Part shown: positions 14,352 to 40,910 of the stretch, piece by piece
How positions within the stretch are numbered: position 1 is the first letter of the stretch
How the letters are laid out: every line of letters begins with the position of its first letter
Origin: an uncultured Chloroflexia bacterium
GTDB taxonomy: Bacteria; Chloroflexota; Limnocylindria; Limnocylindrales; CSP1-4
Assembly (NCBI GenBank): GCA_963721655.1
Contig: CAVRKH010000006.1
Coordinates: 151,986-215,985, forward strand
Direction of reading: 5' to 3'
DNA length: 64,000 nt
Program-made: the position numbers and the translations under genes
The notes under the pieces: model-generated
Database searches by the model: none
Told to the model about the DNA's origin: nothing
The model's input: only the letters and a program-made list of their open reading frames with translations

Positions 14352-14376
14352 TCGAACGAACCCAGAGAGACCGCAC

Positions 14377-17109
<2,733 letters not shown>

Positions 17110-23305: not shown

Positions 23306-24409
23306 ATGGTGCGCTCGATAGACTCCGTGGCGATGCGCGACGTCGCGGTCTGGATCCTCCACCCGGAACCGGGTGCCGGCGCGGGCCCGCTCGAGCGGTG
23401 GGTCGCCGCCGAGCGGTCCCGGATCGCGGAGCGCCACCGCGACGGCTTTCTGCGCGCCGGCGCTGCGACGGCCCGGATCGTCTCCGGTCCGCCCGACGAT
23501 ACATCGTTCGGAGCGCGGCTCCGCGGGCTGGTCGAGGAGGCGCGACCCCGCCCGAGCGGGGCGATCGTGCTGGGCTCCGGCGCGGTTCCGCTGGCGACGA
23601 TCCGCGATCGGCGGTCCTTCGTTGCGACCGCTGCCGCGGCGACACCCACGGCGCTCGCCAACAACCGCTACTCGGCCGACGTCGTCTCGATCGCCTGCGT
23701 CGAATCGCTCCTCGCGCTGCCCGACCTGCCCGCCGACAACGCGCTCCCGCGCTGGCTGGAGGAGGTGGCCGGGTACCAGGTCGACGACCTGCGGCACCGA
23801 TGGCGGCTCGCGTTCGACGTCGACGGGCCACTCGACCTGCTGCTCATGGGTCGCGCGGGCGGTTCGGCCGCCGGCGACGTCGAAACGGCTCGGGCACGCC
23901 TCGGCGCCGTGGCGTCGGTCGCCGCCGATCGGCGGGCCGAGCTGGTCGTGGCGGGGCGCACGTCGGCCGCGACCCTGCGCTGGCTGGAGACAGCCGCCCA
24001 TGCACGCGTCCGCGCGCTTGTCGAGGAACGCGGCATGCGTGCAGCCAGCGTCCTTGCACAGGCCGGCGACCAGTCACGGCCCGGACGCGGCCCGGCGTCC
24101 GTGCTCGGCCTGCTCCTCGATCGTGACGGCCCGGCGTCCCTCGGCGGCCATCTCGAACGGCTGGGCGATGCCGCCGTGGTCGATAGCCGGGTGCTCCTCG
24201 CGCACCGGTTCGGTGCCGACGAGCGAGACTGGCCGCCTGCAGAGGACCGCTTCGCGTCGGACCTGCTGCTCCCCGACCGCGTCGCCGATCCGTGGCTGCG
24301 CGACCTGACCGCGTCGGTCGTGGGCGCGCGGATCCCGGTCGCACTCGGCGGGCACACGCTCGTGGGCGTGGGCCTGCGCCTCCTGCTTGGGAAGCGCCGA
24401 TGGACCTGA
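23306..24409 (+). CDS. conserved hypothetical protein
   Basis: The 3' two-thirds of ORF 22589-24409 have unbiased composition (VLGSGAVPLATIRDRR...NNRYSADVVSIACVESL...). The upstream part is antisense to folK, so I trimmed to ATG 23306. I recognise no family. Confidence 0.45.
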   Translation: MVRSIDSVAMRDVAVWILHPEPGAGAGPLERWVAAERSRIAERHRDGFLRAGAATARIVSGPPDDTSFGARLRGLVEEARPRPSGAIVLGSGAVPLATIRDRRSFVATAAAATPTALANNRYSADVVSIACVESLLALPDLPADNALPRWLEEVAGYQVDDLRHRWRLAFDVDGPLDLLLMGRAGGSAAGDVETARARLGAVASVAADRRAELVVAGRTSAATLRWLETAAHARVRALVEERGMRAASVLAQAGDQSRPGRGPASVLGLLLDRDGPASLGGHLERLGDAAVVDSRVLLAHRFGADERDWPPAEDRFASDLLLPDRVADPWLRDLTASVVGARIPVALGGHTLVGVGLRLLLGKRRWT

Positions 24410-25597
24410 GCGCGGGGCTGCGACGCGAGCCGCCCATCGATCTCGAGGAGGTCGGCGAGAACGAGGTCCTGGCTGCCCGGATCCGCGCGGAGATTGAAGC
24501 AGCCGGCCCGATGACGTTCGCGCGCTTCATGGAGCTCGCGCTGTACGACCCGGATGGCGGCTACTACCGCGGAGCGGAGCCGCGACCGGGGCGGAGCGGC
24601 GATTTCCTGACCGCACCCGAGGCGCACCCGATCTTCGGACAGGCGGTGGCCAACCAGCTGGTCGAGGTCTGGGAACGACTCGATCGCCCCGCGCCCTTCG
24701 TCGTCCGCGAACACGGAGCCGGCGCCGGGACCCTCGCCGAGGCCATCCTGCGCCGGCTCGAGCGGGCGCGGCCGGAGCTGCTTGCCGTCCTGCGCTACGT
24801 GCCCGTCGAGATCGATACGCGGCGCGTCGAAGCGTTCGGCGAGCGGCTGTCCGCGGCGGGCTTCGCGGACCGCATCGCGCCGGCGCGGCGACGATCGCCC
24901 GTTCACGGGTGTCGTGCTCGCGAACGAGGTCCTCGATGCGCTGCCCGTCCACCGCATTGGGGTCCGGGATGGCTCGCTGGCCGAACGCTTCGTGGCAGTG
25001 GGCGCCGACGGCCAACTGGTCGACGCCTGGGGCCCGCCCTCGACGGCGGCGCTCGGCGAACGGCTGCAGGCCGACGGCGTGCGGCTTGCCGAAGGCCAGT
25101 CGGGCGAGGTCTGCCTCGCGCTCGACCGCTGGATCGCGGATGCGGTGCAGTCGCTGGAGCGTGGTCTCCTGCTGCTGATCGATTACGGGGCCCTTGCCTC
25201 GGAGCTGTACGACGCCGTGCGGCGGCCGCAGGGCACGGTCCGCGCGTTCATCAGGCACCGCGTCAGCGACGATCTCTACGGCCACATCGGCCGCCAGGAC
25301 CTGACCGCGCACGTCGATCTGACGGCGCTGGGCGCAGCCGCGAGGGCCGTCGGGCTGGCGCCTGTCGGCGAGACCTCGCAGGCGGAGTTCCTGATCGGCA
25401 ACGGCGCGGAGGCCCTGCTGCAGGAGGTGCAGGCAGATCCGGAGACGACCCTCGCCGCTTATGTCGAGCTGCGATCCGCGTTGATGCGCCTCATCGACCC
25501 GGCCGGCATGGGCGGGTTCCGCGTGACGGCCTTCGGTCGTGCCTGGCCCGCCGGTCCGCCGCTCGCCGGGTTCGCGTACCGAGGACCGCGCCGCTGA
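24400..25597 (+). CDS. MidA/NDUFAF7-family (DUF185) SAM-dependent methyltransferase; frame broken by one extra base near 24886
   Basis: MTFARFMELALYDPDGGYYR...GDFLTAPE.HPIFG...EHGAGAGTLA, then in the +1 frame GDDRPFTGVVLANEVLDALPVHR...GEVCLALDRW...LLLIDYG...QDLTAHVDLT. 1198 nt equals 3n+1. Confidence 0.75.
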
Positions 25598-25949: not shown

Positions 25950-26306
25950 TTGGAAGCGCTCTGGTACATCTTGGGCTTCGCCTTCGCCGGGGTTTCCTTC
26001 GTGTTCCTGACGATCGGCGCGGCCTGGCTGGTTACGCACCGCAACCGGGGTGACGTCCACAAGGGCCTCCCGTACGAGTCGGGCATCGACACGTACGGCG
26101 ACACCCACGGCCGATTCGGCCTCTCCTTCTACATCTACGCACTGCTGTTCGTGGCGTTCGACATCGAGGTGGTCTTCATCTTCGTGTGGGCGCTCACGTT
26201 CAGGGAGTTGCTCCTCGGTGGGTTCGTCAGCATGCTGATCTTTGTCGTCGTCGTCCTGCTCGGGCTGTTCTATGCGGTCCGCAAGGGTGCCCTCACATGG
26301 CACTGA
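25950..26306 (+). CDS. nuoA: NADH-quinone oxidoreductase subunit A
   Basis: PYESGI...F...[18 protein letters not shown] motif. 118 aa, TTG start after GGGGAG. Confidence 0.85.
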
Positions 26307-27001
26307 GCGACAAGACGCCGGGCGCTGCGAGCGCCCTCGTCGTTCCGGAGCCGGCCGACGTCGTCGAGCCGCTCATCGTCCCCAACACCTTCTGGACCTC
26401 GAGCGCACCCGGCGCGTACGTGGGCGGCCACGAGCCCGACCACACGCACCTCGCGCAGCTCGAGACCGACGAGGCCTCGCGCCGCGACAACGCGCGCTGG
26501 AGCGGCCCGCTCGAGATCATCCCGACCAAGGCCGACTATGTCCTCGACCTGATCCGGATGAACTCGCTGTGGCCGCTGCTGTCCGGGCTGGCGTGCTGCG
26601 CGATCGAGATGATGTCGACCGCCACGTCGCGCAACGACCTCGACCGATGGGGCCACTTCCCGTTCCGCGCCAGCCCTCGCCAGGCCGACGTGCTGATCGT
26701 TGCCGGGACGCTGACCACGAAGATGGCCGGCCCGTTGATCCGGCTCTGGGAGCAGATGCCCGAGCCCAAGTGGTGCGTCGCGCTCGGCGACTGCACCTGC
26801 TCGGGTGGCCGCTACAAGCGCAGCTATTCGACCGTGGAGGGCATCGACCGGGTCATGCCGGTTGACGTCTACATCCCCGGCTGCCCGCCGCGGCCCGAGG
26901 GGCTGATGTACGGGATGATGAAGCTCCAGCAGCTCGTCAAGCAGCGCCGGGGCCACTGGCCGGAGCGGGCGATCGGGCCCACCGTTCCGCAGGACGTCTA
27001 G
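26297..27001 (+). CDS. nuoB: NADH-quinone oxidoreductase subunit B with an N-terminal extension of about 85 aa
   Basis: [44 protein letters not shown] and [12 protein letters not shown] (N2 cluster ligands). Confidence 0.9.
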
Positions 27002-27570
27002 TGGATCGACGCTTCAAGACGCGACTCGAAGCGCGCTTCGAGGATCGCCTGACCGGCCCGGTCCGGCAGCGCCATGACGAGACCGAGATCCGGATCCGGC
27101 CCGGCGACGTCGTGCCGGTCATGACCGAGCTCCACGACGATCCCGAGTTCCGCTTCGAGTTCCTCGCCGACCTTGCCGGCGTGGATACGGGCGAGGCGAT
27201 GCAAGCGGTCTACCACCTGTGGAGCGACACCACGCCGGACTGGCTGCGGGTGATCGTCGACGGCCTGTCGCGCGACGATCCGCGGGTCCCGTCGCTCACC
27301 TTCCTGTGGCCGGGCGCCGAGTGGATGGAGCGCGAGGCGTACGACATGTTCGGCATGATCTTCGAGGGCAACCGCGACCTCCGTCGGATCTACATGCCAC
27401 CCGAGTACACGAGCTTCCCGCTGCGCAAGGACTTCCACCTGCCGGACGACGCAGCCCGCTCGCCGGGTGCCGGCTCGCGCCACATGGAGCAGACGCACCT
27501 GCCGACGAACAACCCGAGCGCGGCTGTCCGCCGCCTGCCCGGCTCGCGGCAGCTGCCGGCGAAGCCATGA
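27001..27570 (+). CDS. nuoC: NADH-quinone oxidoreductase subunit C
   Basis: LADLAGVD...YHLWS and WPGAEWMEREAYDMFGMIFEGNRDLRRI. The GTG start overlaps the nuoB stop by 1 nt. Confidence 0.85.
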   Translation: MDRRFKTRLEARFEDRLTGPVRQRHDETEIRIRPGDVVPVMTELHDDPEFRFEFLADLAGVDTGEAMQAVYHLWSDTTPDWLRVIVDGLSRDDPRVPSLTFLWPGAEWMEREAYDMFGMIFEGNRDLRRIYMPPEYTSFPLRKDFHLPDDAARSPGAGSRHMEQTHLPTNNPSAAVRRLPGSRQLPAKP

Positions 27571-28784
27571 CGACGACCCAACGGCCGTCGGCCGACGATC
27601 CGCGCATCCTGCTCGACCAGGAGGCCGGCGTCTTCGAGCCCGTCCCGCCCTACCCGCCGCGAACCGAACGCGAGGCCGAGTTCTACACGCTCGGGGACGG
27701 CGAGATGTTCCTCAACATGGGGCCCCAGCATCCGTCGACCCACGGCGTGCTTCGGGTGGTGCTCAAGATCCAGGGCGAGAACGTCGTCGACCTCGACCCG
27801 GTCCTCGGCTATCTCCACCGTGGCGTCGAGAAGCTCGCCGAGAACGCCGACTACCACCAGGTCATCAGCCAGGTTGACCCGCTCGAATACGTCAGCTCGC
27901 TGTTCAACGAGTGGGGCGCGGTCCTGAGCTTCGAGAAGCTGCTCGACGTCGAGGTCCCGCGCCGCGCCGAGTACATCCGGGTGCTCTCCGCGGAGCTCAA
28001 CCGGATCGCCAGCCACTCCCTGTTCCTGGGCTGGATGGCGCTCGATCTCGGCGGCCTGACGCCGATCCTGTGGTCGTTCATCGAGCGAGACGAGATCGTC
28101 GAGATGCTCGCCTCGCTGACCGGCCAGCGGATGCTCTTCAACTATTTCCGCATCGGCGGCGTCAACGGCGACCTCAACCACGACTTCATGAGCCGGCTCG
28201 GCAACTGGATGAGCCACGCGACCGAGCAGATCGAGGCCGGCCAGGGCCTCCTGAACGAGAACGAGATCTTCGTCCGGCGGATGCGCGGCCTCGGTACGAT
28301 CGATACGGCGACGGCGCTGCGGATGTGCTTCACGGGGCCGAACCTGCGCGCCACCGGCGTCCCGTTCGACATCCGCCGCGCCCATCCGTACTCGGTCTAC
28401 CCCGAGCTCGACTTCGACATCCCGACCCGGGACGAGGGCGACAGCCTGGCGCGCTACCTGCTTCGGATGGAGGAGGTCAAGCAGAGCCTGCGGATCATCG
28501 ACCAGTGCTTGCACCAGATGCCGGATGGCCCGGTGATCGCCAAGCTGCCGCGCCTGCTTCGGCCCCGCCCCGGCCGTGCCTACGCGGCGGTCGAGAGCCC
28601 GCGCGGCCAGTACGCCACGTACGTCGTCAGCGACGGCACCGACCAACCCTTCCGGATGCAGAATCCATGATCCCTCGTACATTCATCTGCAGTCAGTTGG
28701 TCTGTTGATGAAGGGAATCTCATCGCAGACACGATGGCGATCATGGCGAGCCTCGACCCGATCATGGGCGGGGTCGACAAATGA
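27567..28784 (+). CDS. nuoD: NADH-quinone oxidoreductase subunit D; the C-terminus is disrupted by a +1 / -1 pair of frame changes at about 28659 and 28714
   Basis: NMGPQHPSTHGVLRVVL, GYLHRGVEKLAEN and RIGGV. The expected C-terminus PFRM-RIHDPSYIHLQSVGLLMKG-NLIADTMAIMASLDPIMGGVDK is recovered only by reading 28660-28716 in the +1 frame. The stop at 28782-28784 overlaps the nuoH ATG. Confidence 0.85.
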
Positions 28785-30142
28785 CGGTCGTTGGGAGGAC
28801 GTGGAGCCGGCTGACGCTGCCGGGGAAGGTCGTCTTCACGGTCGTTCCGCTGCTCGCGGTCCTGACGATCGCGGGCGCCTTCGCCATCGCGCTGGTCGCC
28901 CAACCGGTCATCGACATCATCGTGGCGAACCTGGCGATCGCGCGGTTCGTCGTGGCCGCCACGATCATCCTGCTCATGACAGTGCCGACGGCCTTCCTGA
29001 TCATCTACCTCGAGCTGAAGGTCATCGCCCAGATGAACCTGCGGATCGGCCCGGATCGCGTCGGGCCATTCGGCTCGCTGCTGTCGGTCGTGCCGGGCCT
29101 CAAGGTCCTGGCGAAGGAGGACTTCACCCCGACCGGCGCGGACGCGATCGTGTTCACGTGGGCGCCGGTCGTGGTCTACCTGACCAGCGTGATGACCCTG
29201 CTCGTCATCCCGTTCGCGCCGGACGGCGTGGTCGGCGCGAGCTTCAACCTGGGGCTGCTGTACTTCTTCGCGATCAGTGGGCTGTCGGTCGTCGGGCTGC
29301 TGATGGGCGGCTGGTCGAGCTTCAACAAGTACTCGCTGCTCGGCGGCCTGCGCTCGGCGGCGTCGGTCGTGAGCTACGAGATCCCGCTCGTGCTGTCCGT
29401 CGTGGGCGTGATCCTGATCGCCGGCACGATGGACCTGACGGTCATCGTCCGGAACCAGGCGGGCTGGTTCACCGACTGGTACATCTGGCAGCAGCCGCTG
29501 GCATTCCTCATCTTCTTCATCGCCGCGACCGCCGAAGCGAACCGCACCCCATTCGACCTGACCGAGGCGGACTCCGAGATCGTCGCCGGCTTCGCCACCG
29601 AGTACTCCGGGATGCGCTTCGGGTTCTTCTTCTTCGCCGAGTACGTGAACGTCTTCATCATCTCGGCCCTGATCGTGACGCTGTTCTTCGGCGGCTGGAA
29701 CGCGCCAATCGCGTGGCCCGCGGAGTGGGCGATCACCTTGTCGATCAATCCCGGGTCGCTCGGGATCGCCCTGCTGCTCATCGTGCTGATCGTCCCGCTC
29801 GTCCTGACGCTCGTGTTCGCGACGCCACTGTGGCTCATCAGCTCGCGCATCAAGACCTGGCAGGCGCTGCTCGGCGGCTTCGTGCTCGCCAACCTGTTCG
29901 TGATCGGGGTCATCTTCGGGATCGCCTACATCGGCCTCGCCTGGGTGGCCGGCCTGCTCTGGTTCCTCCTCAAGACGTACTTCTTCGTGTTCACCTTCGT
30001 GTGGATGCGTGGGACCCTGCCGCGTGTCCGCATCGACCAGCTGATGAACTTCGCCTGGAAGTGGTTGATGGAGCTCGCGTTCATCAACATCTTCGTGACG
30101 GCAGGCGCGATCATCCTCATCGAGTACCTGAGGCGCCCGTGA
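28781..30142 (+). CDS. nuoH: NADH-quinone oxidoreductase subunit H (long form, 453 aa)
   Basis: RIGPDRVGPFG, NKYSLLGGLRSAA..VSYEI, EANRTPFDL.EA.SEIVAGF.TEYSGMRF and VWMRGTLPRVRIDQLM. Confidence 0.9.
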   Translation: MTVVGRTWSRLTLPGKVVFTVVPLLAVLTIAGAFAIALVAQPVIDIIVANLAIARFVVAATIILLMTVPTAFLIIYLELKVIAQMNLRIGPDRVGPFGSLLSVVPGLKVLAKEDFTPTGADAIVFTWAPVVVYLTSVMTLLVIPFAPDGVVGASFNLGLLYFFAISGLSVVGLLMGGWSSFNKYSLLGGLRSAASVVSYEIPLVLSVVGVILIAGTMDLTVIVRNQAGWFTDWYIWQQPLAFLIFFIAATAEANRTPFDLTEADSEIVAGFATEYSGMRFGFFFFAEYVNVFIISALIVTLFFGGWNAPIAWPAEWAITLSINPGSLGIALLLIVLIVPLVLTLVFATPLWLISSRIKTWQALLGGFVLANLFVIGVIFGIAYIGLAWVAGLLWFLLKTYFFVFTFVWMRGTLPRVRIDQLMNFAWKWLMELAFINIFVTAGAIILIEYLRRP

Positions 30143-30813
30143 GCTTCGTACCTGGACTCGGCATCGTGAAGGGCATGGCGCTGACGCTGCGTCGCTTCTT
30201 CGAGCCGAAGGTGACGGTCAAGTACCCCGAGGAGCGGTACGTGGTCGCGCCGAAGTTCCGCGGACGGCTGCAGCTGCTGTACGACGAGTGGGGCACGCTC
30301 AAGTGCGAGACCTGCTTCCAGTGCGCCCAGGCGTGCCCGATCGAGTGCATCGACATGGGCGGCGTCGACTCGCGCGGTCGCTACCACGTCCACTGGGGTC
30401 CGCCCGAGACGTACGGGGAGCGGCGCGAGGAATCGGCGCTGCGCCGCTCGGGCCGGCCCGTCCCTGACGCGGCCTACCGCCATTTCCAGCCCGTCGACCT
30501 GGCCGCCGTCGACGAGATCCTCGACGACGTCGACTACGACCCGAAGCGGATGCTCGAGATCCTCGAGGCCACGCAGGGTGTCTACGGCTACCTGCCGGTC
30601 GCGGCGCTGAAGCGGATCAGCCAGAAGACCGGGGCGTGGTACGCGATGATCTACGGCACGGCCACGTACTACGGGCACCTCCGCTTCGAACCGGCCGAGG
30701 ACACGGAGCAGGCCGCTGCGATCGACCGGAACCGTCCACCCGAAGCGTCGTATGTCGCTGCGCTCGGGGCCTCACTTGCAGGCGTCCCGCGCGGCGCTCC
30801 GCCGGCGGCCTGA
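30139..30813 (+). CDS. hybrid Fe-S protein: NuoI-like N-terminal half (a single Cys motif) fused to a NuoE-like N-terminal helical segment
   Basis: LTLRRFFEPKVTVKYPEERYVVAPKFRGRLQL...CETCFQCAQACPIECI is NuoI-like, but no second CxxCxxCxxxCP motif is found in any frame. RMLEILEATQGVYGYLPVAALKRISQKTGAWYAMIYGTATYYGHLRF is NuoE-like, with no thioredoxin-like 2Fe-2S domain. The GTG start overlaps the nuoH stop (GTGA). Confidence 0.6.
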   Translation: MSFVPGLGIVKGMALTLRRFFEPKVTVKYPEERYVVAPKFRGRLQLLYDEWGTLKCETCFQCAQACPIECIDMGGVDSRGRYHVHWGPPETYGERREESALRRSGRPVPDAAYRHFQPVDLAAVDEILDDVDYDPKRMLEILEATQGVYGYLPVAALKRISQKTGAWYAMIYGTATYYGHLRFEPAEDTEQAAAIDRNRPPEASYVAALGASLAGVPRGAPPAA

Positions 30814-30815
30814 CC

Positions 30816-32153
30816 ATGGTCAACCGGCTGTCCACGCCGTCCGGCTGGCCGGCGATCCTGCTGGAGCGCGCCGACGCCCCGGATCCGACCGACCTCGATG
30901 CGGCCGTCGCCGCTGGTGCGTTCGAGGGCATGCGCCGCGCGATCCGCGATCTCGGCCCGACGGGCACGATCGCGACCGTTGCGGCGTCCGGGTTGCGCGG
31001 CCGGGGTGGCGCGGGCTTCCCGACGGGCGAGAAGTGGCGTGCCGCCGCGTCGGTCGAGGCACCCCGCCGGTATGTCGTCGCCAACGGCTATGGCGCAGAT
31101 CCCGCGACGTTCACCGATCGCGCGCTGCTCGAGCTCGACCCGTATTCGGTGGTCGAGGGGACCGCGATCGCGGCCTACGCGATCGGCGCGAGCGAGGCGT
31201 TCATCGCGGTCCGCGCGGAGCAGATCGAGGCCATCCGGCGCCTCGAGGCGGCCATCGCGGCCGCGGAGGAAGCCGGCTTTCTCGGCAGCGACGTGCACGG
31301 CTCCGGCCATGACATCGACGTGCGTCTTCGGCCGGTCCAGGGCGCGTACATGCTCGGCGAGGAGACCGTCCTGCTGAAGGCCCTTGAGGGGAAGCGCGGC
31401 CAGCCGGAGCAGCGTCCGCCGTATCCCACCGAGCGCGGCCTGTTCGACATGCCGACGGTCGTCCAGAACGTGCAGACGCTGGCCGCGATCCCGTGGATCG
31501 TGCGCAACGGGCCCGCGGCGTTCACCGCGATCGGCGGCAAGAGCAGCCCGGGCACGGTCCTCGTCCAGGTCCGCGGACCGGGTACCGAGGGCATCGCCGA
31601 GGTTCCGCTGGCCACGCCGCTTCGCGAGATCGTGGCCCTGGCCGGCAAGCTGCCGAGGGGCCGAAAGGTCAAGGCACTGCTCGTCGGCGGGCCGTCCGGG
31701 GGCCTGCTCCCGCCGGACCTGCTCGACACTCCCTACGACTTCGAGTCGCTGCGCGCGGCAGGGGCCCACCTCGGCTCCGGGTCGGTGGTGATCGCCGACG
31801 ACCGTGCGTGCGTCGTGGACCTCGCTCGCCTGCTGACCCGGTTCTGCTCGAGCGAAGCGTGCGGCAAGTCGATCCCGTGCCGCATCGGCACGCGCCGGAT
31901 CGCGGAGATCGGCGACCGGATCGTCGAAGGCCGGCCACGCCAGAACGACCTCGGCATCCTCGCCGACCTGTCGGCGGACATCGTCGGCTCCGCCCTGTGC
32001 GACCACGAGCGTCTTGCAACGCTTCCGTGGGGGAGCGGAATGCGATACTTCAGGGCAGAGCTCGACGATCATCTCCTCCGCAGCTCCTGCCCGGCGCGTG
32101 TCTGCCAGCCCATCAAGATCGCCGCCGGCAAGACCCCAGTGAAGGCATCCTGA
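30816..32153 (+). CDS. nuoF: NuoF-like NADH dehydrogenase flavoprotein subunit (variant N3 cluster motif)
   Basis: GLRGRGGAGFPTGEKW, GAYMLGEETVLLKALEGKRGQPEQRPPYPTERGLF and PTVVQNVQT. The cluster motif reads FCSSEACGKSIPCRIG rather than ESCGKCxPCR. Confidence 0.85.
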   Translation: MVNRLSTPSGWPAILLERADAPDPTDLDAAVAAGAFEGMRRAIRDLGPTGTIATVAASGLRGRGGAGFPTGEKWRAAASVEAPRRYVVANGYGADPATFTDRALLELDPYSVVEGTAIAAYAIGASEAFIAVRAEQIEAIRRLEAAIAAAEEAGFLGSDVHGSGHDIDVRLRPVQGAYMLGEETVLLKALEGKRGQPEQRPPYPTERGLFDMPTVVQNVQTLAAIPWIVRNGPAAFTAIGGKSSPGTVLVQVRGPGTEGIAEVPLATPLREIVALAGKLPRGRKVKALLVGGPSGGLLPPDLLDTPYDFESLRAAGAHLGSGSVVIADDRACVVDLARLLTRFCSSEACGKSIPCRIGTRRIAEIGDRIVEGRPRQNDLGILADLSADIVGSALCDHERLATLPWGSGMRYFRAELDDHLLRSSCPARVCQPIKIAAGKTPVKAS

Positions 32154-34800
32154 ATGGCAGACCTGATCACGCGCCCTGACAGCCGCCCCGATCGCGCACC
32201 TGCCGCGTCGCCCGAATCGCTTGCCGAGCGCCTGCTCGACACGCAGGCGCCGCAGCGTCCGCAGTCGACGCCGCGCATCCGGATCGAGGTGGACGGGCGA
32301 GTCGTGGAGGGCTTCGAGGGCCAGACGATCCTCGAGGTCTGCCGCGACAACGGGATCGAGATCCCGACGCTGTGCTACGAGCCGAAGCTGCCCGGGTTCG
32401 GTGCCTGCCGGATGTGCGTCGTCGAGGTCGAGGGCGAGGAGCACCCGCCGATCAGCTGCTCCCGGACGTGCGAGCCGGGCATGAAGGTCGAGACGCAGAC
32501 CGACGAGATCCGTCGGTTGCGCCGCACGAACCTCGAGCTGATCTTCAGCGACCACAACGCGTACTGCCTGCCGCCGTGCCAGAACAAGTGCCCGAGCCAC
32601 ATCGACATCCCGGGCTTCCTCAAGGCCAACGCCGAGGCGGACTGGCGCGAGTCGACGCGCATCTTCAAGCGCACGATCCCCTTCCCCAGCGTGCTCGGCC
32701 GGGTGTGCCCCGCCCCGTGCGAGGAGCACTGCCGCCGGGACGAGGTCGACGAGGCGATCGCGATCCGCGACAGCCACCGCTACGCGGGCGACCAGGTGAT
32801 CATGTCGATGCTCGACGAGGGCGTCGATCCGCCGCTCCCGTACGAGCGCCAGGCGCCGACCGGCCGCAAGGCGGCGGTGATCGGATCAGGTCCTGCCGGC
32901 ATGGCCGCCGCCTACTACCTGCTGCTCGCGGGCCACGAGGTGACGGTCTTCGAGCGCGACCCGGCGCCCGGAGGGATGCTCCGCTACGGCATTCCCGCAG
33001 TACCGGCTGCCGAAGGTCGAGGTGCTCGAGGCCGAGTACGAATCGGTCACGCGGCTGGGCGGCACGGTCGTGTGCGATGCGGGCCTCGGACGGGACTTCA
33101 CCCTCGACGACCTGACCAACCAGGGCTTCGGCGCCGTCCTCGTGGCGATCGGCTGCTACGAAGTGAACAAGCTCGGAGTCCCCGGCGAGGACGCGGCCGA
33201 GGTGCTCGACGGCCTCGAGTACCTGCGGACCGCGACGCTCGGGCTGCCGTACCCGGAGCACGCCGGCAAGCGCGTCGTCGTCATCGGCGGCGGGTTCACC
33301 TCGATGGACTGCTCGCGGACCTCGGTCCGCCAGGGCGCCGCCGAGGTGACGCTCGTGTACCGCCGCGACATGAAGGACATGCCCGCTGCCAACGAAGTGC
33401 ACGAGGCGATCGAGGAAGGTGTGACCACCATCTTCCAGGCGGGCCCGGTACGCGTCGTCACCGACAAGGCCGGCAACGTGACCGGCGTCGAGTTCATCCG
33501 GATGCGCCCGGGCGAGCCCGATGCCTCGGGCCGGCGCCGGCCCGAGCCCGCCCCGGGGACCGAGTTCACGATCCCCTGCGATCGTGTCCTGCTCGCGATC
33601 GGCCAGGGGCCGGAGCTCGACTGGATCGAGCAGCCCGGCAACGAGGGCGTGACCGCGAAGCGCGCCAGGCTGGCCGCCGACGCGGTGACGTTCGAGACCG
33701 GCCGGACCGGCGTGTTCGGCACCGGGGACGTGCGGATCGGTGCCGCGACGGTGGTCCAGGCAATCGCCGAGGGCCGGCGCGCCGCGTACGCGGTCGACGC
33801 CCACCTTCGCGGGCTCGACCTGTCGGCGATCCGCACGCGCCAGACGCTCGCCGAACCGCAGCCCGAGTTCCTGTCGATCGTGCCCTTCACGAGCGAGGTG
33901 AAGGAATCGCGCTACCGGATGACGGCGATGCCCGCCGAGGTCCGCAACCAGAGCTACGTCGAGTACGAGCTGCCGTACACGCCCGAGGCCGCGATGGCCG
34001 AATCGACGCGCTGCCTGCAGTGCACGTGCGAGGCGATCGGCTTCTGCGACCTGCGCCGGCTCGGCATCGAGTACGGCACGACGCTCAAGACGCTCGAGCC
34101 GCAGTACCACCAGGGCGCCGGCTACCGCAGCGTCACCGAGAACCGCTTCACCGGCACGAACCACGACTACATCCGCGACGACTCCCACGCGTTCATCCTG
34201 CGCGAGCCGTCGCGCTGCATCGACTGCGGGCGCTGCGCCAACGTGTGCGCCGAGGTCGTCGGGGCCGCCTGCTACGACTTCATGCGGATCGGCTTCGACA
34301 CGCTCGTGACGACACCGCTCGACATGAGCCTCAACGACACCCCGTGCGTGTCGTGCGGCCGCTGCGCCGAGACGTGCCCGACCGGGGCGCTGATGCCGAA
34401 GCCGCGCGTGCTCGAGAAGTACGAGGTCGACGAGAGCCGCTGCATCCTGTGCGGCATCTGCGTCGACGCGTGCCCGTACGACGCGCTCCGCGACGGCGCC
34501 GACATCGAGCTCGCCCAGACCAGCCGCGAGGAGCCGATGATCGACCTCATGGCGATCGCGGCGATCGACCGCGAGACCGAGGTGACCTACATCCGGCGCG
34601 AGGCCGACTGGGCGACGCGGGCCGCAGCCGAGGGCCGCATCATCGACGCCGGGCGGCTGCTGCCGGTGCTCCCGGCGACGACCACCGGCCTGCCGTCGGG
34701 GAACGGCCATGGCGCCAACGGCAACGGCCACGCGGCGCTGGGCAGCGGACACGGAAACGGCGGGCATGGCGCCGGCGGCGGCCACGCCCACCCGAAGTAG
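32154..34800 (+). CDS. multidomain Fe-S flavoprotein: NuoG-type 2Fe-2S domain + GltD-like NAD(P)H:FAD oxidoreductase module + NuoG/HydA-type 4Fe-4S domains + His/Gly-rich tail; frame broken by one extra base near 32997
   Basis: - Fer2 domain: IEVDGRVVEGFEGQTILEVC...PTLCYEPKLPGFGACRMCVVEV.
- GltD N-terminal region: CLPPCQNKCPSHIDIPGFLK...FPSVLGRVCPAPCEEHC.
- Dinucleotide motifs: AAVIGSGPAGMAAAYYL and VVVIGGGFTSMDC.
- Cys motifs: CIDCGRCANVC, CVSCGRCAETCP and CILCGICVDACP.
- The length of 2647 nt equals 3n+1.
- No molybdopterin-like domain is present. Confidence 0.75.
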
Positions 34801-34802
34801 CC

Positions 34803-35402
34803 ATGCTCCGCAAGCTCGTGCCGATCCTGATCGCGGCCGCGATCCTCGGCATGGTCACCGGTATCGCCGCGTTGATGATCGTGCTGCTGGGGCAGGACTG
34901 GGAGGACGCCCTCCTGTGGCTGCTGTCGGCGGTGATGATCGGCTCGGCGCTGCTCGTCGTGACGATGCGCGACATCATCCGCTGCGGCCTCGCGATGATC
35001 GTGTGCTTCGGGGCCCTCGCCGGGATCTACGTGCTCCTCGGGGCACCGCTCATCGGCGCCGCGCAGGTGATCGTGTACATCGGCGCGATCAGCGTGCTGA
35101 TCCTGTTCGCGATCATGCTCACCCAGACCAAGGACGCGCCGCGCGTGCTGGTCTTCCAGACCCAGTCGGCAGCGGCGGCCGTTGCCTCGATCATCATCGC
35201 AGTCCTCCTGGCGCTGTCGATCACGGCGACGGACTGGGGTGAGCTGCCGGCGCGAGTCCGGCTCGCGACGAACGAGCTGTCGCGCATCCTGTTCACCGAC
35301 GCAGGCAACCTGCTCCCGTTCGAGGTGATCGGGGTGCTGCTGCTGGCGGCCGTGATCGGCGGCGTGTACCTGGCAAAGCGCGAGCCGGGCGGACCGGCGT
35401 GA
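34803..35402 (+). CDS. nuoJ: NADH-quinone oxidoreductase subunit J
   Basis: [27 protein letters not shown] and [17 protein letters not shown]. Confidence 0.85.
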
Positions 35403-35725
35403 GCAATTCGCTCGACGCCTACCTGATCCTGTCGACGCTCCTCTTCTCGATCGGCACGTTCGGGTTCCTCGCCCGGCGGAACGCGATCAGCATGCTCATG
35501 TCGATCGAGCTCATGCTCAACGCGGTCAACCTGGCGATCGTCGCCTTCGCCGCGTTCGGGGCGTTCGGAGCGACGCCCGAGGGCGTGTCGCGCGGGTCCG
35601 TGATCGCACTGATGGTCATCTCGGTCGCTGCGGCCGAGGCGACGGTCGGCCTCGCGATCATCATCGCCATCTACCGGAACCGGCGAACGCCGCTCGTTGA
35701 CGAGTACGACTCCATGCGCCAATGA
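35399..35725 (+). CDS. nuoK: NADH-quinone oxidoreductase subunit K
   Basis: [32 protein letters not shown]...[12 protein letters not shown]. The GTG start overlaps the nuoJ stop. Confidence 0.9.
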
Positions 35726-35766
35726 GCGAGCGCGGCTCACGCGTCGGCAGGCAAGGCTGATCGACG

Positions 35767-37752
35767 TTGGACACGCTGATCCCCCTCATCCCGGTCCTGC
35801 CGTTTGCAGGCTTCGCGATCACCGCCCTGATCGGTCGGCGGCTGGGCAAGCAGGCGCACTGGATCCCGGTCCTCGCCGTCTTCGCGGCGTGGGTCATCTC
35901 GATGCTCGCGTCGTATTACGTGCTGAGCGGTGCGGCGCCGCTGGCCGCGGGCTCCGAGGACCTGCACGCGTACGTCGTGCCCATCTACGAGTGGATCCCG
36001 GCCGGCGCGTTCCAGGTCGAGGTCGGGTTCTTCGTCGACCCGCTGACCGCCTGCCTCCTGATCGTCGTCACGACGATCGGCCTGCTGGTGCACATCTACT
36101 CGATCGGGTACATGGGCCACGACCCGGGGTACTGGCGCTTCTTCGCGTACCTGAACCTGTTCATGTTCTCGATGCTCCTGCTGGTCCTCGCGGACAGCTG
36201 GCTGGTCGTGTTCGTGGCCTGGGAGCTGGTCGGCCTGTGCAGCTACCTGCTGATCGGCTTCTGGTTCCGCAGGCACTCGGCGGCCCTCGCCGCCAAGAAG
36301 GCGTTCCTGGTGAACCGCGTGGGCGACGTCGGCTTCGCGCTCGGGATCATGGCGATCTTCGCGACCACGCTCGCGATCGGTGAGCCGACGCTCAACATTC
36401 GCGCGTCGATCGAGCTCCTGACCGTTCACGCTGCCGATCTGACGATCCCGATCACGGTCATCGCGCTGCTCATCCTGGCCGGCGCGATGGGCAAGAGCGC
36501 CCAGTTCCCGCTCCACGTGTGGCTGCCCGACGCGATGGAAGGCCCGACCCCGGTGTCGGCGCTGATCCACGCGGCGACGATGGTCAACGCCGGCGTCTAC
36601 CTGGTGGCCCGGGCGAACCTGTTGTTCGCCGGCGCCCCGAGCGCGATGGTCATCGTGGCCGCCATCGGCATCTTCACGGCCATCCTCGCGGCGACGATCG
36701 CGATGACCCAGACCGACATCAAGCGCGTGCTCGCCTATTCGACGCTCAGCCAGCTCGGCTACATGTTCGCGGCGCTCGGCGTCGGCGCGTTTACCGCGGC
36801 GATCTTCCACCTCATGACCCACGGCTTCTTCAAGGGCCTGCTGTTCCTCGGCTCCGGCTCGGTCATCCACTCGGTCGAGGACGAGCAGGACATGCGCCAG
36901 ATGGGCGGGCTGTCGAAGAAGATCCCGATCACGTACGTGACGATGCTGATCGGGTCGTTCGCCATCGCGGGCATCCCGCCACTGGCCGGGTTCTTCTCGA
37001 AGGACGAAGTCCTCGGCGAGGCCTACAAGCTCGGCTTCTACTGGGTCTGGGGGATCGGCCTGTTCGTCGCCCTGCTGACGGCGTTCTACATGTTCCGGCT
37101 CATGGGCCTGACCTTCTGGGGTGACTTCCGTGGCCCGCGGGAGCTGTGGGACAGGATCCACGAGTCGCCGAGGATCATGACGATCCCGCTGATCCTGCTC
37201 GCCATTCCGTCGGTGTTCCTCGGCCTGCTGCTCGGCTTGCCCCTGGGCGACAGCACGATCCACCAGTGGCTCGCGCCGGTGTTCCAGGAGGCCGAGGAGC
37301 TGCTCGCCCTTCCGGAGGCCCAGTACCAGCTGTTCGGCATCGACGGCGTGCTCATCGTCGCGAGCGTGGCCGTCGCGTCCGTCGGCGTTGCGCTTGCCTG
37401 GCGGTTCTTCGGCGTCGACATCGGCCCCGTGCGGCTGTCCAGCCGCCCCGAGGCTGTCCGGAGCATGACCGCCCGGGTGCCGTTCCTGTACCGCGCATCG
37501 CTCAACAAGTGGTGGTTCGACGACCTCTATCACCTGCTGTTCATCGTGATCGGCGGGCGGATCGCCGCGTTCCTGTGGTGGTTCGACCGTGAGGTCGTCG
37601 ATGGGACCGTCAACGGCATCGGCAGACTGACCGTCGGGGCAGGCCGTGAGCTGCGCCTGGTGCAGACGGGTCGGGTCCAGAACTACGCGCTCGGGATCGC
37701 CTTCGGGCTGATCGTGATGGCCGGCTCGTACCTGATCCTGGCGGGCCGCTGA
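35767..37752 (+). CDS. nuoL: NADH-quinone oxidoreductase subunit L
   Basis: WELVGLCSYLLIGFW, GKSAQFPLHVWLPDAMEGPTPVSALIHAATMV and a long C-terminal amphipathic region. 661 aa. Confidence 0.9.
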   Translation: MDTLIPLIPVLPFAGFAITALIGRRLGKQAHWIPVLAVFAAWVISMLASYYVLSGAAPLAAGSEDLHAYVVPIYEWIPAGAFQVEVGFFVDPLTACLLIVVTTIGLLVHIYSIGYMGHDPGYWRFFAYLNLFMFSMLLLVLADSWLVVFVAWELVGLCSYLLIGFWFRRHSAALAAKKAFLVNRVGDVGFALGIMAIFATTLAIGEPTLNIRASIELLTVHAADLTIPITVIALLILAGAMGKSAQFPLHVWLPDAMEGPTPVSALIHAATMVNAGVYLVARANLLFAGAPSAMVIVAAIGIFTAILAATIAMTQTDIKRVLAYSTLSQLGYMFAALGVGAFTAAIFHLMTHGFFKGLLFLGSGSVIHSVEDEQDMRQMGGLSKKIPITYVTMLIGSFAIAGIPPLAGFFSKDEVLGEAYKLGFYWVWGIGLFVALLTAFYMFRLMGLTFWGDFRGPRELWDRIHESPRIMTIPLILLAIPSVFLGLLLGLPLGDSTIHQWLAPVFQEAEELLALPEAQYQLFGIDGVLIVASVAVASVGVALAWRFFGVDIGPVRLSSRPEAVRSMTARVPFLYRASLNKWWFDDLYHLLFIVIGGRIAAFLWWFDREVVDGTVNGIGRLTVGAGRELRLVQTGRVQNYALGIAFGLIVMAGSYLILAGR

Positions 37753-37754
37753 CG

Positions 37755-39414
37755 ATGAACGTCACCGACATCCCGATCCTGTCGATCCTGATCTTCCTGC
37801 CGCTGCTCGGCTCGATCGTGCTGGCCGTCCTGCCGACGACGATGACGCGCCCCGTGGCACTCGGCACGGCGCTGCTGACGTGGGTGGTGTCCCTGCTCCT
37901 GCTGGTCGGCTACGCGCCGACCTCGCCGGGCTTCCAGTACACGGAGACGCTCGACTGGATCCCGCTGTTCGGGATCCAGTACAAGCTCGGCGTCGACGGG
38001 GTGTCGGCGGCGCTCGTCGTCCTCACGACGACCCTGACCTGGATCTCGATCCTCGCGAGCTTCGTCCCGATCCAGACCCGGATCAAGGAGTACATGGTCT
38101 CGTTCCTCGTGCTCGAGCTCGGCATGCTCGGCGTGTTCCTGGCACTGGACCTGTTCCTGTTCTACATCTTCTGGGAGATCGTCCTCGTCCCGATGTACCT
38201 GATCATCGGGATCTGGGGCGGATCGAACCGGATCTACGCCACGATCAAGTTCGTCCTGTACACCCTCGTCGGGTCGCTGCTGATGCTCGTGGCGATCCTC
38301 GCCACCGCGTTCGCCTACCAGTCCGCGACCGGCAGCTGGGTGAACGCCTTCGACTACGAGACGCTGCGCGCCTTCGCGCTCGACCCGGCCGGCGGGTTCG
38401 CGCCGGAGCTCCAGGTCGCCGCGTTCATCGCGTTCTTCCTGGCGTTCGCGATCAAGGTCCCGATGTTCCCGTTCCATACGTGGCTGCCCGACGCGCACAC
38501 CGAGGCGCCAACGGCCGGCTCGGTGATCCTCGCCGGCGTCATGCTCAAGCTCGGCGGCTACGGTCTGCTGCGGTTCGCCATCCCGCTGTTCCCCGACGCG
38601 GCACAGACGTTCGCGCCGGTGGTCATCGCGCTGTCGCTGATCGGGATCATCTACGGCGCGATCGTCGCCCTGGTCCAACCGGACCTCAAGCGCCTCGTCG
38701 CCTACTCGTCGGTCAGCCACATGGGCTTCGTCACGCTCGGCCTGTTCGTGTTCAACGAGCAGGGCGTGCAGGGCGCGATCCTCCAGATGATCAACCACGG
38801 CCTGATCACGGGCGCCCTGTTCCTGCTCGTCGGCGTGATCTACGAGCGGACCCACGACCGGACGATCTCGAAGATGGGCGGGCTCGCCGCGCTGATGCCT
38901 GTCTACGTGCTGACGTTCGGCTTCTTCGCGTTCGCGTCGGCCGGGCTGCCGGGCCTCAGCGGCTTCGTCGGGGAGTTCCTGACGCTCGTCGGCGCGTTCG
39001 TCGCCAACCCGTGGGTCGCGGCGATCGCGGCGTTCGTGATGATCCTCGGGGCCGCGTACCTGCTGTGGATGTTCCAGCGCATCGCCTTCGGCGAGGTCTC
39101 GCCGTTCTTCCGTGACCTCGGGCACCACCTGACCGACATGACGCCCGATCGAGGTGGCGACCCTCGTGCCGCTTGCCGGGCTCGTGGTCGCCTTCGGCCT
39201 GTTCCCGGGCCTCCTGCTCGACCTGATCCCGCTGACCGTCGCCGCCACGGTCGAGAGCGCGGACGCCGGCCAGGTGATCGCGATCCCGACCGAGATCGTG
39301 CTGGCGGCCCTCGGCCTGCTCCTGGCCTTCGTCGTCGGCCGGATCGTGTACGTCGCGGTTCTCGACCACGAGCCGGCGGCCGAGCCGGCGCGGGGCGCGG
39401 GTGGGGCCGGATGA
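37755..39414 (+). CDS. nuoM: NADH-quinone oxidoreductase subunit M; frame broken by one extra base near 39147
   Basis: FYIFWEIVLVPMYLIIGIWGG and KVPMFPFHTWLPDAHTEAPTAGSVILAGV. The C-terminus (IEVATLVPLAGLVVAFGLFPGLLLDL...) is in the +1 frame. 1660 nt equals 3n+1. The stop overlaps the nuoN ATG (ATGA). Confidence 0.85.
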
Positions 39415-40910
39415 CGTTCCAGGAGCTCACCACCGTCGCACCCTTCGTTGCCGCTGTTCTCACGGCAATCGCGATCATGCTCGTGGACCTGGCCTGGCCG
39501 AACCGGTCCGCGCTCGCGGTCGGCACCGCCCTGATCGGGCTGGCCATCACGGCCGGGCTGGTCATCCTCGTCGGCGGCTCCGGCACCACCGCCCAGTTCG
39601 CGTTCGGCGGCACCTACGAAGTGGACGCCCTCACCACGTTCCTCCAGTTGCTGCTGATCGGCGTGGTCGCACTGTCGATCGTGTTCGGTCCGGATTACCT
39701 CGGGCCGCGCAACCTGCCGACCGCCGAGTTCGCAACCGTGCTCGTGTTCGCGCTCACGGGCGCGATGTTGATCGCCGCCTCGGCCGACCTGCTGATCCTG
39801 TTCATCGCCCTCGAGCTGATGGTGCTGCCCGGGTACCTGCTGGCGGCCTACCACAAGTCCGACGCCTACTCGACCGAGGGCGCGATCAAGTACTTCCTGC
39901 TGGGCTCGTTCAGCTCGGCCATCTTCCTGTTCGGCCTTGCGTTCGTGTGGGGCATGACGGGCACCACCAGCACGGCCGGGGTGGCCGAGGCGCTCAGCGC
40001 GATCGTGGCCGGGTCGAGCGAGCTGTCGCCGGGGCTGGCGATGGGCCTCGCGCTGATGACGACCGGCGTCGCGTTCAAGATCGCCGCGGTGCCGTTCCAC
40101 TACTGGACGCCGGACGCCTACCAGGGCTCGCCGACACCGGTGACCGGCTACCTGTCGGTGGGCCCGAAGGTCGGCGCGTTCGCGCTGATCCTGCGGCTGT
40201 TTGCCGACGGGCTCTACCCGCTGGCCGAGTGGTGGCTCCCGGTCATCCTCGTGCTCTCGACGCTGACCATGACGCTCGGCAATCTCGTCGCCCTGACCCA
40301 GGACAACGTCAAGCGGATGCTGGGGTACAGCTCGATCGCGCACACCGGCTACATGCTGGTCGGGCTCGCGGCCTACGCGGCAGGCGAGCTGCAGGGCCTC
40401 GAAGGGCTCCTCTACTACACCGCGGCGTACGCCGCGATGAACCTCGGGGCGTTCGCCGTCGTCGCGGCGCTCCAGAAGCGGTCAGGCGTGACCTCGCAGC
40501 TCGAGACGTTCGCAGGCCTCGGCAGGCGCGAGCCGCTGCTCGGCGGCCTGATGGTGCTGTTCCTGCTGTCGCTGATCGGAATCCCGCCGACGGCCGGCTT
40601 CTTTGCCAAGGCCTACGTGATCATCGCCGCGGTCGAGGTGGGCGGACCGCTCACGATTCTGGCCGTGATCATGGTCATCAACGCCGCGATCGCTGCCTTC
40701 TACTACCTGCGCGTCGTCGTGTACATGTACATGCGCGAGCCGCGTACCGAGCAGGCGCCACTCCGCCACGGCCGCCTGCTGTGGTCCGGGCTGGCGGTCA
40801 CCACCGTGCTCGTGATCGTGCTCGGATTGTTTCCCACGACCGTCTTCGAGGCGGTGAGCGAGGCAGCGCAGGCGCTGCCGCCGATCGAGGTCACGCAGGC
40901 GTCGAACTGA
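39411..40910 (+). CDS. nuoN: NADH-quinone oxidoreductase subunit N
   Basis: LELMVLPGYLLAAY, FKIAAVPFHYWTPDAYQGSPTPVTGYLSVGPK and MLGYSSIAHTGYML. Confidence 0.9.
   Translation: MTFQELTTVAPFVAAVLTAIAIMLVDLAWPNRSALAVGTALIGLAITAGLVILVGGSGTTAQFAFGGTYEVDALTTFLQLLLIGVVALSIVFGPDYLGPRNLPTAEFATVLVFALTGAMLIAASADLLILFIALELMVLPGYLLAAYHKSDAYSTEGAIKYFLLGSFSSAIFLFGLAFVWGMTGTTSTAGVAEALSAIVAGSSELSPGLAMGLALMTTGVAFKIAAVPFHYWTPDAYQGSPTPVTGYLSVGPKVGAFALILRLFADGLYPLAEWWLPVILVLSTLTMTLGNLVALTQDNVKRMLGYSSIAHTGYMLVGLAAYAAGELQGLEGLLYYTAAYAAMNLGAFAVVAALQKRSGVTSQLETFAGLGRREPLLGGLMVLFLLSLIGIPPTAGFFAKAYVIIAAVEVGGPLTILAVIMVINAAIAAFYYLRVVVYMYMREPRTEQAPLRHGRLLWSGLAVTTVLVIVLGLFPTTVFEAVSEAAQALPPIEVTQASN

Follow-up and report, generated by a model that had tools for sequence, protein, structure and literature searches.

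How is a complex I constituted when the gene that follows nuoH carries half of NuoI and a piece of NuoE in a single protein? The question is raised by a gene for 224 amino acids, here termed the hybrid gene, in a 64,000-nucleotide stretch of DNA (the window) from an uncultured Chloroflexia bacterium (Limnocylindrales; CSP1-4; assembly GCA_963721655.1, contig CAVRKH010000006.1, positions 151,986–215,985 of the forward strand). The gene is part of a single operon (25950–40910) that contains nuoA, B, C, D, H, J, K, L, M and N. An initial annotation, made from the sequence of the window, described the product as one half of NuoI, the N-terminal one, joined to the helical N-terminal part of a NuoE devoid of its 2Fe-2S domain, and considered the second CxxCxxCxxxCP motif of NuoI to be absent. 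Profile hidden Markov model (HMM) searches and Protein Data Bank (PDB) matches bear out this fusion, which is in frame. The second motif, however, has been relocated: it lies at the C-terminal end (34405–34665) of the G/GltD protein, the product of the second gene downstream. We therefore read the hybrid protein, with a probability of about 0.8, as a genuine, selected subunit of a complex I with a split NuoI, typical of Ca. Limnocylindria and a few other lineages.

Domains, cysteines and conservation of the hybrid protein

The hybrid gene and its parts are arranged as follows.

30139–30813, forward strand: hybrid gene, 224 amino acids, consisting of the NuoI N-terminal half, a conserved linker, a cluster-less NuoE/HydC-like helical domain and a short helical tail
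30163–30384, forward strand: NuoI N-terminal half, residues 9–82, with an amphipathic helix, the PKVTVKYPEE...FRGR segment and the first ferredoxin motif
30304–30348, forward strand: cysteine motif CETCFQCAQACPIEC, with C56, C59, C62, C66 and C70
30385–30486, forward strand: conserved linker, residues 83–116, HVHWGPPETYGERREESALRRSGRPVPD..., with high column conservation
30487–30699, forward strand: NuoE/HydC/NfnC-like helical domain, residues 117–187, without cysteines (identified by PF01257, PDB, AlphaFold2 and Foldseek)

The N-terminal half follows the first part of the NuoI models in NCBIfam, matching positions 13–87 of 180 in NF004536 and positions 1–64 of 121 in TIGR01971 (E about 1e-14). 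With 54.5 bits against TIGR01971 (cut-off 113.05), the protein stays far below the cut-offs of this and all other NuoI equivalog models, and on its own it carries one CxxCxxCxxxCP motif, not the two motifs with eight cysteines that define NuoI. PDB chains of NuoI and NDUFS8 align with residues 9–73 of the hybrid (7ar7_I residues 23–87; 8qby_I residues 17–81), as do residues 25–88 of Escherichia coli NuoI. The hybrid contains exactly five cysteines, none of which lies in the NuoE-like part or after residue 70, and each is 100% conserved among 84 aligned orthologues. The four cysteines of the motif are invariant even across relatives with 30% identity. For the linker, profile searches of Pfam and NCBIfam returned no family match.

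The helical domain belongs to the NuoE family, with residues 125–187 matching positions 2–64 of 145 in Pfam PF01257 at 31.9 bits (gathering cut-off 24.8), and the hybrid scores far below the cut-offs of the NCBIfam NuoE models. NfnC, StnA and HydC chains in the PDB match residues 117–186, the best chain being NfnC 9bov_C (residues 19–88, E 2.9e-12). In an AlphaFold2 model of the hybrid, built from a 52-sequence alignment, this domain reaches a predicted local distance difference test (pLDDT) score of about 95 and superposes best on NfnC 9bp5_C in Foldseek, with a root-mean-square deviation of 1.0 Å over 66 columns and 42% identity. The protein ends about 37 residues past the helical domain, and the thioredoxin-like domain, whose four cysteines bind the 2Fe-2S cluster N1a/C1, is absent. 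Public annotations name such proteins "ferredoxin" or "NAD(P)H-dependent oxidoreductase subunit E".

Both the fusion and the missing cluster domain are conserved among orthologues. The protein database holds 2953 relatives of the hybrid, and the best 120 of these 2953 all measure 217–236 amino acids, with 77–94% identity. A scan with one genome per species found the hybrid in at least 476 species, almost all of them Ca. Limnocylindria/Limnocylindrales (Chloroflexota), and in MEGAHIT short-read as well as long-read assemblies. The chance that a frameshift or misjoin merged normal nuoI and nuoE genes in the window is thus negligible. The initial annotation had urged caution about indels, which was justified, as nuoD, the G gene, nuoM and a methyltransferase gene of the window each carry single-base frameshifts. 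A nucleotide alignment to a 92%-identical locus (L005), however, reveals no indel inside 30139–30813, so that no frameshift explains the fusion, and the same 217–236-residue protein recurs across thousands of independent assemblies. Nor does any other frame of 30100–30830 carry a cysteine motif or a 2Fe-2S domain. Furthermore, the invariant cysteines and the conserved linker indicate purifying selection. Read-through into a polyprotein was also considered and ruled out, with the hybrid, NuoF-like and G genes lying in different frames and separated by clean stop/start junctions.

The C-terminal half of NuoI on the G/GltD protein

The genes that surround the hybrid, and the second NuoI segment, are located as follows.

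28781–30142, forward strand: nuoH (open reading frame list; Pfam NADHdh on the orthologues in loci L001 and L004; tblastn synteny), its stop overlapping the hybrid start
30816–32153, forward strand: NuoF-like flavoprotein, 445 amino acids, core only (Pfam Complex1_51K and NADH_4Fe-4S)
32154–34800, forward strand: G/GltD fusion gene, with a one-base frameshift near 32992 in the window copy and intact orthologues of 869–882 amino acids
34405–34665, forward strand: NuoI C-terminal half at the end of G, with motif C, CILCGICVDACP (34441–34476), and the NuoI tail DIELAQTSREE...IDAGRLLP
34803–35402, forward strand: nuoJ, starting 2 nucleotides past the G stop codon

The C-terminus of the G/GltD protein (G), which comprises motif C and about 60 further residues, has TIGR01971 as its best family match, at positions 71–116 of 121 (E 1.2e-15; 57.2 bits against the cut-off of 113), and aligns with residues 93–147 of the NuoI chain 8qby_I. 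E. coli NuoI matches just two places in the 64-kb window, namely the hybrid and the C-terminus of G, the latter with residues 60–180 up to the terminal IDxxxLLP. When residues 1–80 of the hybrid were joined in silico to the G C-terminus, the product gave one alignment to NDUFS8 residues 23–148 (92.8 bits, E 1.6e-25), close to the sum of the roughly 50 bits that either half reaches by itself. Motif C is 100% conserved in 65 loci. The position of NuoI is likewise kept, the N-terminal half starting at the nuoH stop and the gene with the C-terminal half ending 2 nucleotides before nuoJ. Since the two pieces match complementary parts of the NuoI models and join end to end with NDUFS8, NuoI looks split between its two ferredoxin motifs, as judged from the coordinates of the HMM, phmmer and BLAST matches on which the assignment of the halves rests.

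From N- to C-terminus, G consists of a NuoG-type 2Fe-2S domain, a GltD-type domain for two [4Fe-4S] clusters, flavin adenine dinucleotide (FAD) and reduced nicotinamide adenine dinucleotide phosphate (NADPH), an N5-like cluster, a 2[4Fe-4S] domain formed by motifs A and B, the NuoI C-terminal half and a His/Gly tail. Motifs A and B, like C of the CxxCxxCxxxC type, have a 38-residue spacer between them and correspond in every column to the 2[4Fe-4S] domain found in NfnA, StnC, HydA and HoxU. Because A and B are already paired, motif C has no partner inside G. Two alternative placements of the motifs were set aside. A MAFFT alignment of all halves with E. coli NuoI put the hybrid motif under the second NuoI motif, which we discounted, the two motifs being alike. 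Motif C could also be taken for what is left of the first cluster of FdhF type, which occupies the same alignment position in NfnA; this reading was rejected, as motif C is a ferredoxin-type CxxCxxCxxxCP followed by NuoI-specific sequence.

The two halves were also modelled as separate chains with AlphaFold2. In the hybrid the N-terminal helix is predicted with moderate confidence, and the half-ferredoxin and linker (residues 25–108) score below 50. In the model of the G C-terminus (window 33949–34680), the A+B domain reaches a pLDDT of 72–87, and motif C and the NuoI tail again remain below 50. Beyond the NuoI-like C-terminus, G ends in a His/Gly-rich, low-complexity tail (GNGHGANGNGHAALGSGHGNGGHGAGGGHAHPK, window 34675–34797), with similar tails in L001 and L004; this tail could bind metal.

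The module between nuoH and nuoJ and the proposed enzyme

The three proteins encoded between nuoH and nuoJ resemble StnABC and NfnABC (8oh5, 9bov, 9n5u), electron-bifurcating transhydrogenases of the Bfu family. The same three genes occur there in the same order, and each of the three proteins has its best PDB match among these enzymes. For G, residues 48–779 match NfnA 9bov_A (E 9e-161), Thermococcus NfnA 9n5u_A and StnC 8oh5_C; as in the large subunit of these enzymes, a GltD domain for NADPH and FAD lies between the NuoG-type 2Fe-2S and the 4Fe-4S domains (PMC10482914). The initial annotation had proposed a NuoF-like partner for the hybrid. A flavoprotein with Pfam Complex1_51K does adjoin it, but the partners are not ordinary NuoF and NuoG and instead resemble Stn/NfnABC (Bfu) with a GltD-type NADPH/FAD domain. 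Against TIGR01959 the NuoF-like protein scores 373 bits, below the NuoF equivalog cut-off of 558.65, and its best PDB chains are NfnB, StnB and HydB (371–362 bits), ahead of the NuoF chains of complex I (307–246 bits). It covers residues 105–526 of 584 of the NfnB/StnB chains only, without their N- and C-terminal cluster domains.

The B1/N3 motif of the NuoF-like protein is altered to C-x4-C-x5-C (RFCSSEACGKSIPCRIG, 31839–31889, with a further part at 31989–32015). The canonical second cysteine of CxxCxxC is replaced by serine or threonine, and an extra cysteine lies five residues upstream. The pattern RFC-x3-E[AS]CGK[ST]IPCRIG...SALCDHERL is present in all of the approximately 62 Limnocylindria loci where it is readable; E. 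coli NuoF and the proteins of the divergent loci L085 and L086 have the canonical motif.

In contrast to StnABC and NfnABC, the module here is located inside a nuo operon, and its large subunit ends in the NuoI C-terminal half where those enzymes have an FdhF-like domain. The B-type subunit lacks the extra cluster domains of Bfu enzymes (N-terminal 2Fe-2S, C-terminal 2[4Fe-4S]). Published Stn/Nfn structures show FAD and NADPH bound in the GltD domain, from which a chain of clusters leads to flavin mononucleotide (FMN) (PMC10482914, PMC11829005). Three cofactors make up the minimal bifurcation site, namely FMN, B1 [4Fe-4S] and, in the E-type subunit, C1 [2Fe-2S] (PMC11829005). As the E-type subunit here is without a cluster, this published minimal site is incomplete.

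In the ferredoxin fold, one motif supplies three of the cysteines of a [4Fe-4S] cluster and the other motif supplies the remaining one. We postulate that the two halves come together in the usual 2[4Fe-4S] fold of NuoI (N6a, N6b), so that each cluster would have three of its ligands on one chain and its fourth on the second chain. The helix of the hybrid N-terminal half would dock on NuoH, and through both NuoI halves the input module would be locked to the Q-module at both ends. The tethering of the flavoprotein module to the Q-module connector, anticipated in the initial annotation, would be a reasonable consequence. The cluster-less NuoE remnant may have been retained because it contacts the NuoF-like protein. 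Electrons from reduced nicotinamide adenine dinucleotide (NADH), at the FMN of the NuoF-like protein, and from NADPH, at the FAD of the GltD domain, would pass through the clusters of G to N6a/N6b, N2 and finally quinone. Electron bifurcation is not expected, since the E subunit has no 2Fe-2S cluster and the B-type subunit none of the extra ferredoxin domains seen in Bfu enzymes.

A hybrid that acts as a self-sufficient half-NuoI, binding a single [4Fe-4S] cluster through its first three cysteines and the fifth (CPIEC), with the second cluster lost from the enzyme, is very improbable. The hybrid reading frame does carry one motif only, and the fifth cysteine is 100% conserved, CPIEC being invariant within the main-operon family of Limnocylindria. 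However, CPxxC also occurs in the canonical two-cluster NuoI of E. coli (CPVGC), and the distant hybrids of L085 and L086 (CPVEAI, CPPRAI) keep the split layout without it; for these two reasons the fifth cysteine appears unnecessary for explaining cluster binding, and the suggestion of the initial annotation that it completes a lone cluster is unlikely. This model is further opposed by the end of G, where every locus has a second motif, perfectly conserved, and a tail specific to NuoI, and by the gap to N2 that a loss of N6b would leave, which would be too long by the known geometry of complex I. Improbable, though less so, is an arrangement in which motifs B and C of G form an intrachain 2[4Fe-4S] ferredoxin that replaces NuoI, the hybrid motif pairing with A or binding nothing and serving as an anchor. 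BLAST aligns E. coli NuoI residues 60–180 to motifs B and C as one ferredoxin domain, and the two motifs lie 21 residues apart; yet A and B correspond column for column to an established 2[4Fe-4S] domain, AlphaFold2 folds A+B confidently and leaves C unresolved, and NuoI-specific sequence is complementary on each side of the split. The four motif cysteines of the hybrid, invariant at 30% identity, moreover argue for metal binding.

The function of the module is open to a further reading, in which it keeps a Stn/Nfn-like bifurcation, works mainly as a membrane-anchored transhydrogenase, or runs in reverse, from quinol and proton-motive force to NADPH. We consider this unlikely. Its closest solved relatives are the bifurcating NfnABC and StnABC, two nicotinamide sites share one cluster chain, and L085 and L089 retain the 2Fe-2S cysteines of the E subunit; the family of the window, however, does not carry that cluster, a part of the minimal bifurcation site (PMC11829005), its NuoF-like protein lacks both terminal cluster domains of Bfu B subunits, and the operon holds a full set of Q- and P-module genes. 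Several points nevertheless weigh against a split NuoI that feeds NADH and NADPH into complex I. Interchain cluster ligation is deduced from homology and the rules of the fold, and with motif C 21 residues past motif B, an intrachain B+C ferredoxin is sterically conceivable. The use of NADPH is deduced from GltD homology and the YRR motif, which we take to point to NADPH. Given the non-canonical N3 motif, the FMN branch may differ from that of standard NuoF. Lastly, the low pLDDT of both halves fits half-domains that need a partner, but it is weak evidence, as three sequences cover the C-terminal half and AlphaFold2 models no cofactors.

As to the origin of the split-NuoI enzyme, the location of the module between nuoH and nuoJ, together with its Bfu affinity, suggests the insertion of a cassette. 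On balance, and with distinctly less confidence than in the hybrid itself, we lean towards a scenario in which a Bfu-type (Stn/Nfn-like) cassette was inserted into the nuoI gene of an 11-subunit-type complex I, amounting to a second, independent origin of the N-module with a split two-chain NuoI and an input of NADH and NADPH to a proton pump, the NuoE 2Fe-2S domain being lost later.

Divergent relatives, operon context and significance

Searching representative sequences, and searching with a profile, recovered relatives of the hybrid at 30–47% identity in several layouts, and relatives at 31–47% identity keep the full NuoE domain. L089 (1999–6415; 59% GC) has the order nuoD - nuoH - hybrid - F - G, a hybrid with full NuoE and 2Fe-2S cysteines, and a G protein that ends in ...CIFCSECVEVCPHNAL. 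The hybrid of L085 (1321–6023; 49% GC) is likewise complete in its NuoE part and 2Fe-2S cysteines. In this locus GltD is fused to F (1048 amino acids), nuoJKLMN follow downstream, and the G protein is a 265-residue HoxU-like protein that carries the NuoI C-terminal half (end ...CIYCGLCVESCPHDALETGSDYELA); it has one close relative in the protein database and otherwise retrieves generic NuoG/Fdh N-termini. In P0253 and P0151 the NuoE cluster domain is partly decayed.

A second Limnocylindria-type subfamily is represented by L086 (8230–15458 of a 1.68-Mb contig) and L087, with the order nuoB - nuoD - hybrid (239 amino acids) - F - G - methyltransferase. The NuoD of L086 (358 amino acids) is of the complex I type, without the NiFe cysteines, and the end of its G protein resembles the mitochondrial NDUFS8 sequence. 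No nuoA, C, H or J–N genes were found near the L086 cluster, which may encode a soluble enzyme or an alternative peripheral arm. Constant in all layouts is the NuoI N-terminal half on the E-type protein and the C-terminal half on the last protein of the module. Judged from these sequences, the split of NuoI is older than the Limnocylindria clade, and the loss of the NuoE cluster domain, retained in L085 and L089, appears to be a later step within Limnocylindria.

The gene order nuoH - hybrid - nuoF-like - G/GltD - nuoJ is present in every locus long enough to judge, those from MEGAHIT short-read assemblies included. The GTG start of the hybrid overlaps the nuoH stop (GTGA); a NuoF-like gene adjoins the hybrid in all loci and starts 3 nucleotides after the hybrid stop in the window. 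Together with the Pfam-annotated orthologous operons of L001 and L004, this gene content identifies the whole as a complex I operon at the level of sequence. Its EFG-type module occupies a position between nuoH and nuoJ, whereas that of E. coli lies between nuoD and nuoH. Canonical complex I has separate, full-length NuoE, F, G and I; here E is truncated and fused, and I is split. The G protein carries GltD and has no molybdopterin-like domain, unlike canonical NuoG.

Compared with NuoI/Nqo9/TYKY/NDUFS8, the N-terminal segment and first motif are found on the hybrid and the second motif and tail on G, at the expected gene positions after nuoH and before nuoJ, but as two half-genes about 4 kb apart, each fused to an N-module protein and neither reaching the family cut-off. 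With NuoE/Nqo2/24-kDa, HydC, StnA and NfnC, the hybrid shares the helical N-terminal domain and the neighbouring NuoF-type gene; it differs in the missing thioredoxin-like domain with the four 2Fe-2S cysteines and in the fusion to the NuoI N-terminal half. The remaining gene set (A, B, C, D, H, J–N) is similar to that of the 11-subunit complex I lacking NuoEFG (PMC3144371, PMC4758237). Rearrangement of nuo genes by modules is thus known, but NuoCD of E. coli and NuoBCD of some bacteria are fusions of whole subunits, and the 11-subunit form is without a whole module, in contrast to the present case, where a subunit is split inside its ferredoxin fold.

Single-base frameshifts in the window lie near 24889 (methyltransferase gene), 28660 and 28716 (nuoD), 32992 (G) and 39146 (nuoM). 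Because of the nuoD pair, 19 codons are read in the wrong frame, and an in-frame stop lies at 28668–28670. The orthologues in L001 and L004 are intact (nuoD 420, G 869–882 and nuoM 550 amino acids), and on comparison with them the frameshifts are probably assembly errors rather than signs of pseudogenes. Among the fetched loci, two predicted hybrid reading frames of 571 and 677 amino acids read on into the NuoF-like gene, and many "representative" relatives are frame-shifted chimeras. This points to frequent indel errors in the public assemblies of these high-GC genomes.

A gene of PF02636 (Methyltransf_28), the family to which NDUFAF7/MidA, an assembly factor of mitochondrial complex I, belongs, is found directly upstream of nuoA in the window (24403–25594), in L001 (3997–5196) and in L004 (4200–5408). 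In L086 it directly follows the G gene (14358–15458). The arrangement suggests that the methyltransferase is conservedly linked to this enzyme.

Complex I serves as a textbook example of evolution by modules, with the recruitment of its NADH-oxidising N-module still an open question. In the searchable literature, PMC4758237 and PMC13212565 included, we came across neither a split NuoI nor an account of this operon; the corpus is incomplete, so that this is absence of evidence only. The Limnocylindria operon looks like a separate event of N-module recruitment frozen in gene order, with the input module inside nuoI and fused to both of its halves, and should concern specialists in complex I evolution and Fe-S proteins. 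If the proposed reassembly is true, it would provide a natural ferredoxin-fold domain built from two chains with shared clusters, which is relevant to how Fe-S proteins assemble and to the engineering of split ferredoxins. The public names of the hybrid miss its NuoI half, and automated pipelines will consequently score such genomes as being without nuoI, nuoE and nuoG. For an abundant, uncultured class of soil and freshwater bacteria, the operon predicts a proton-pumping, NADPH-oxidising respiratory enzyme.

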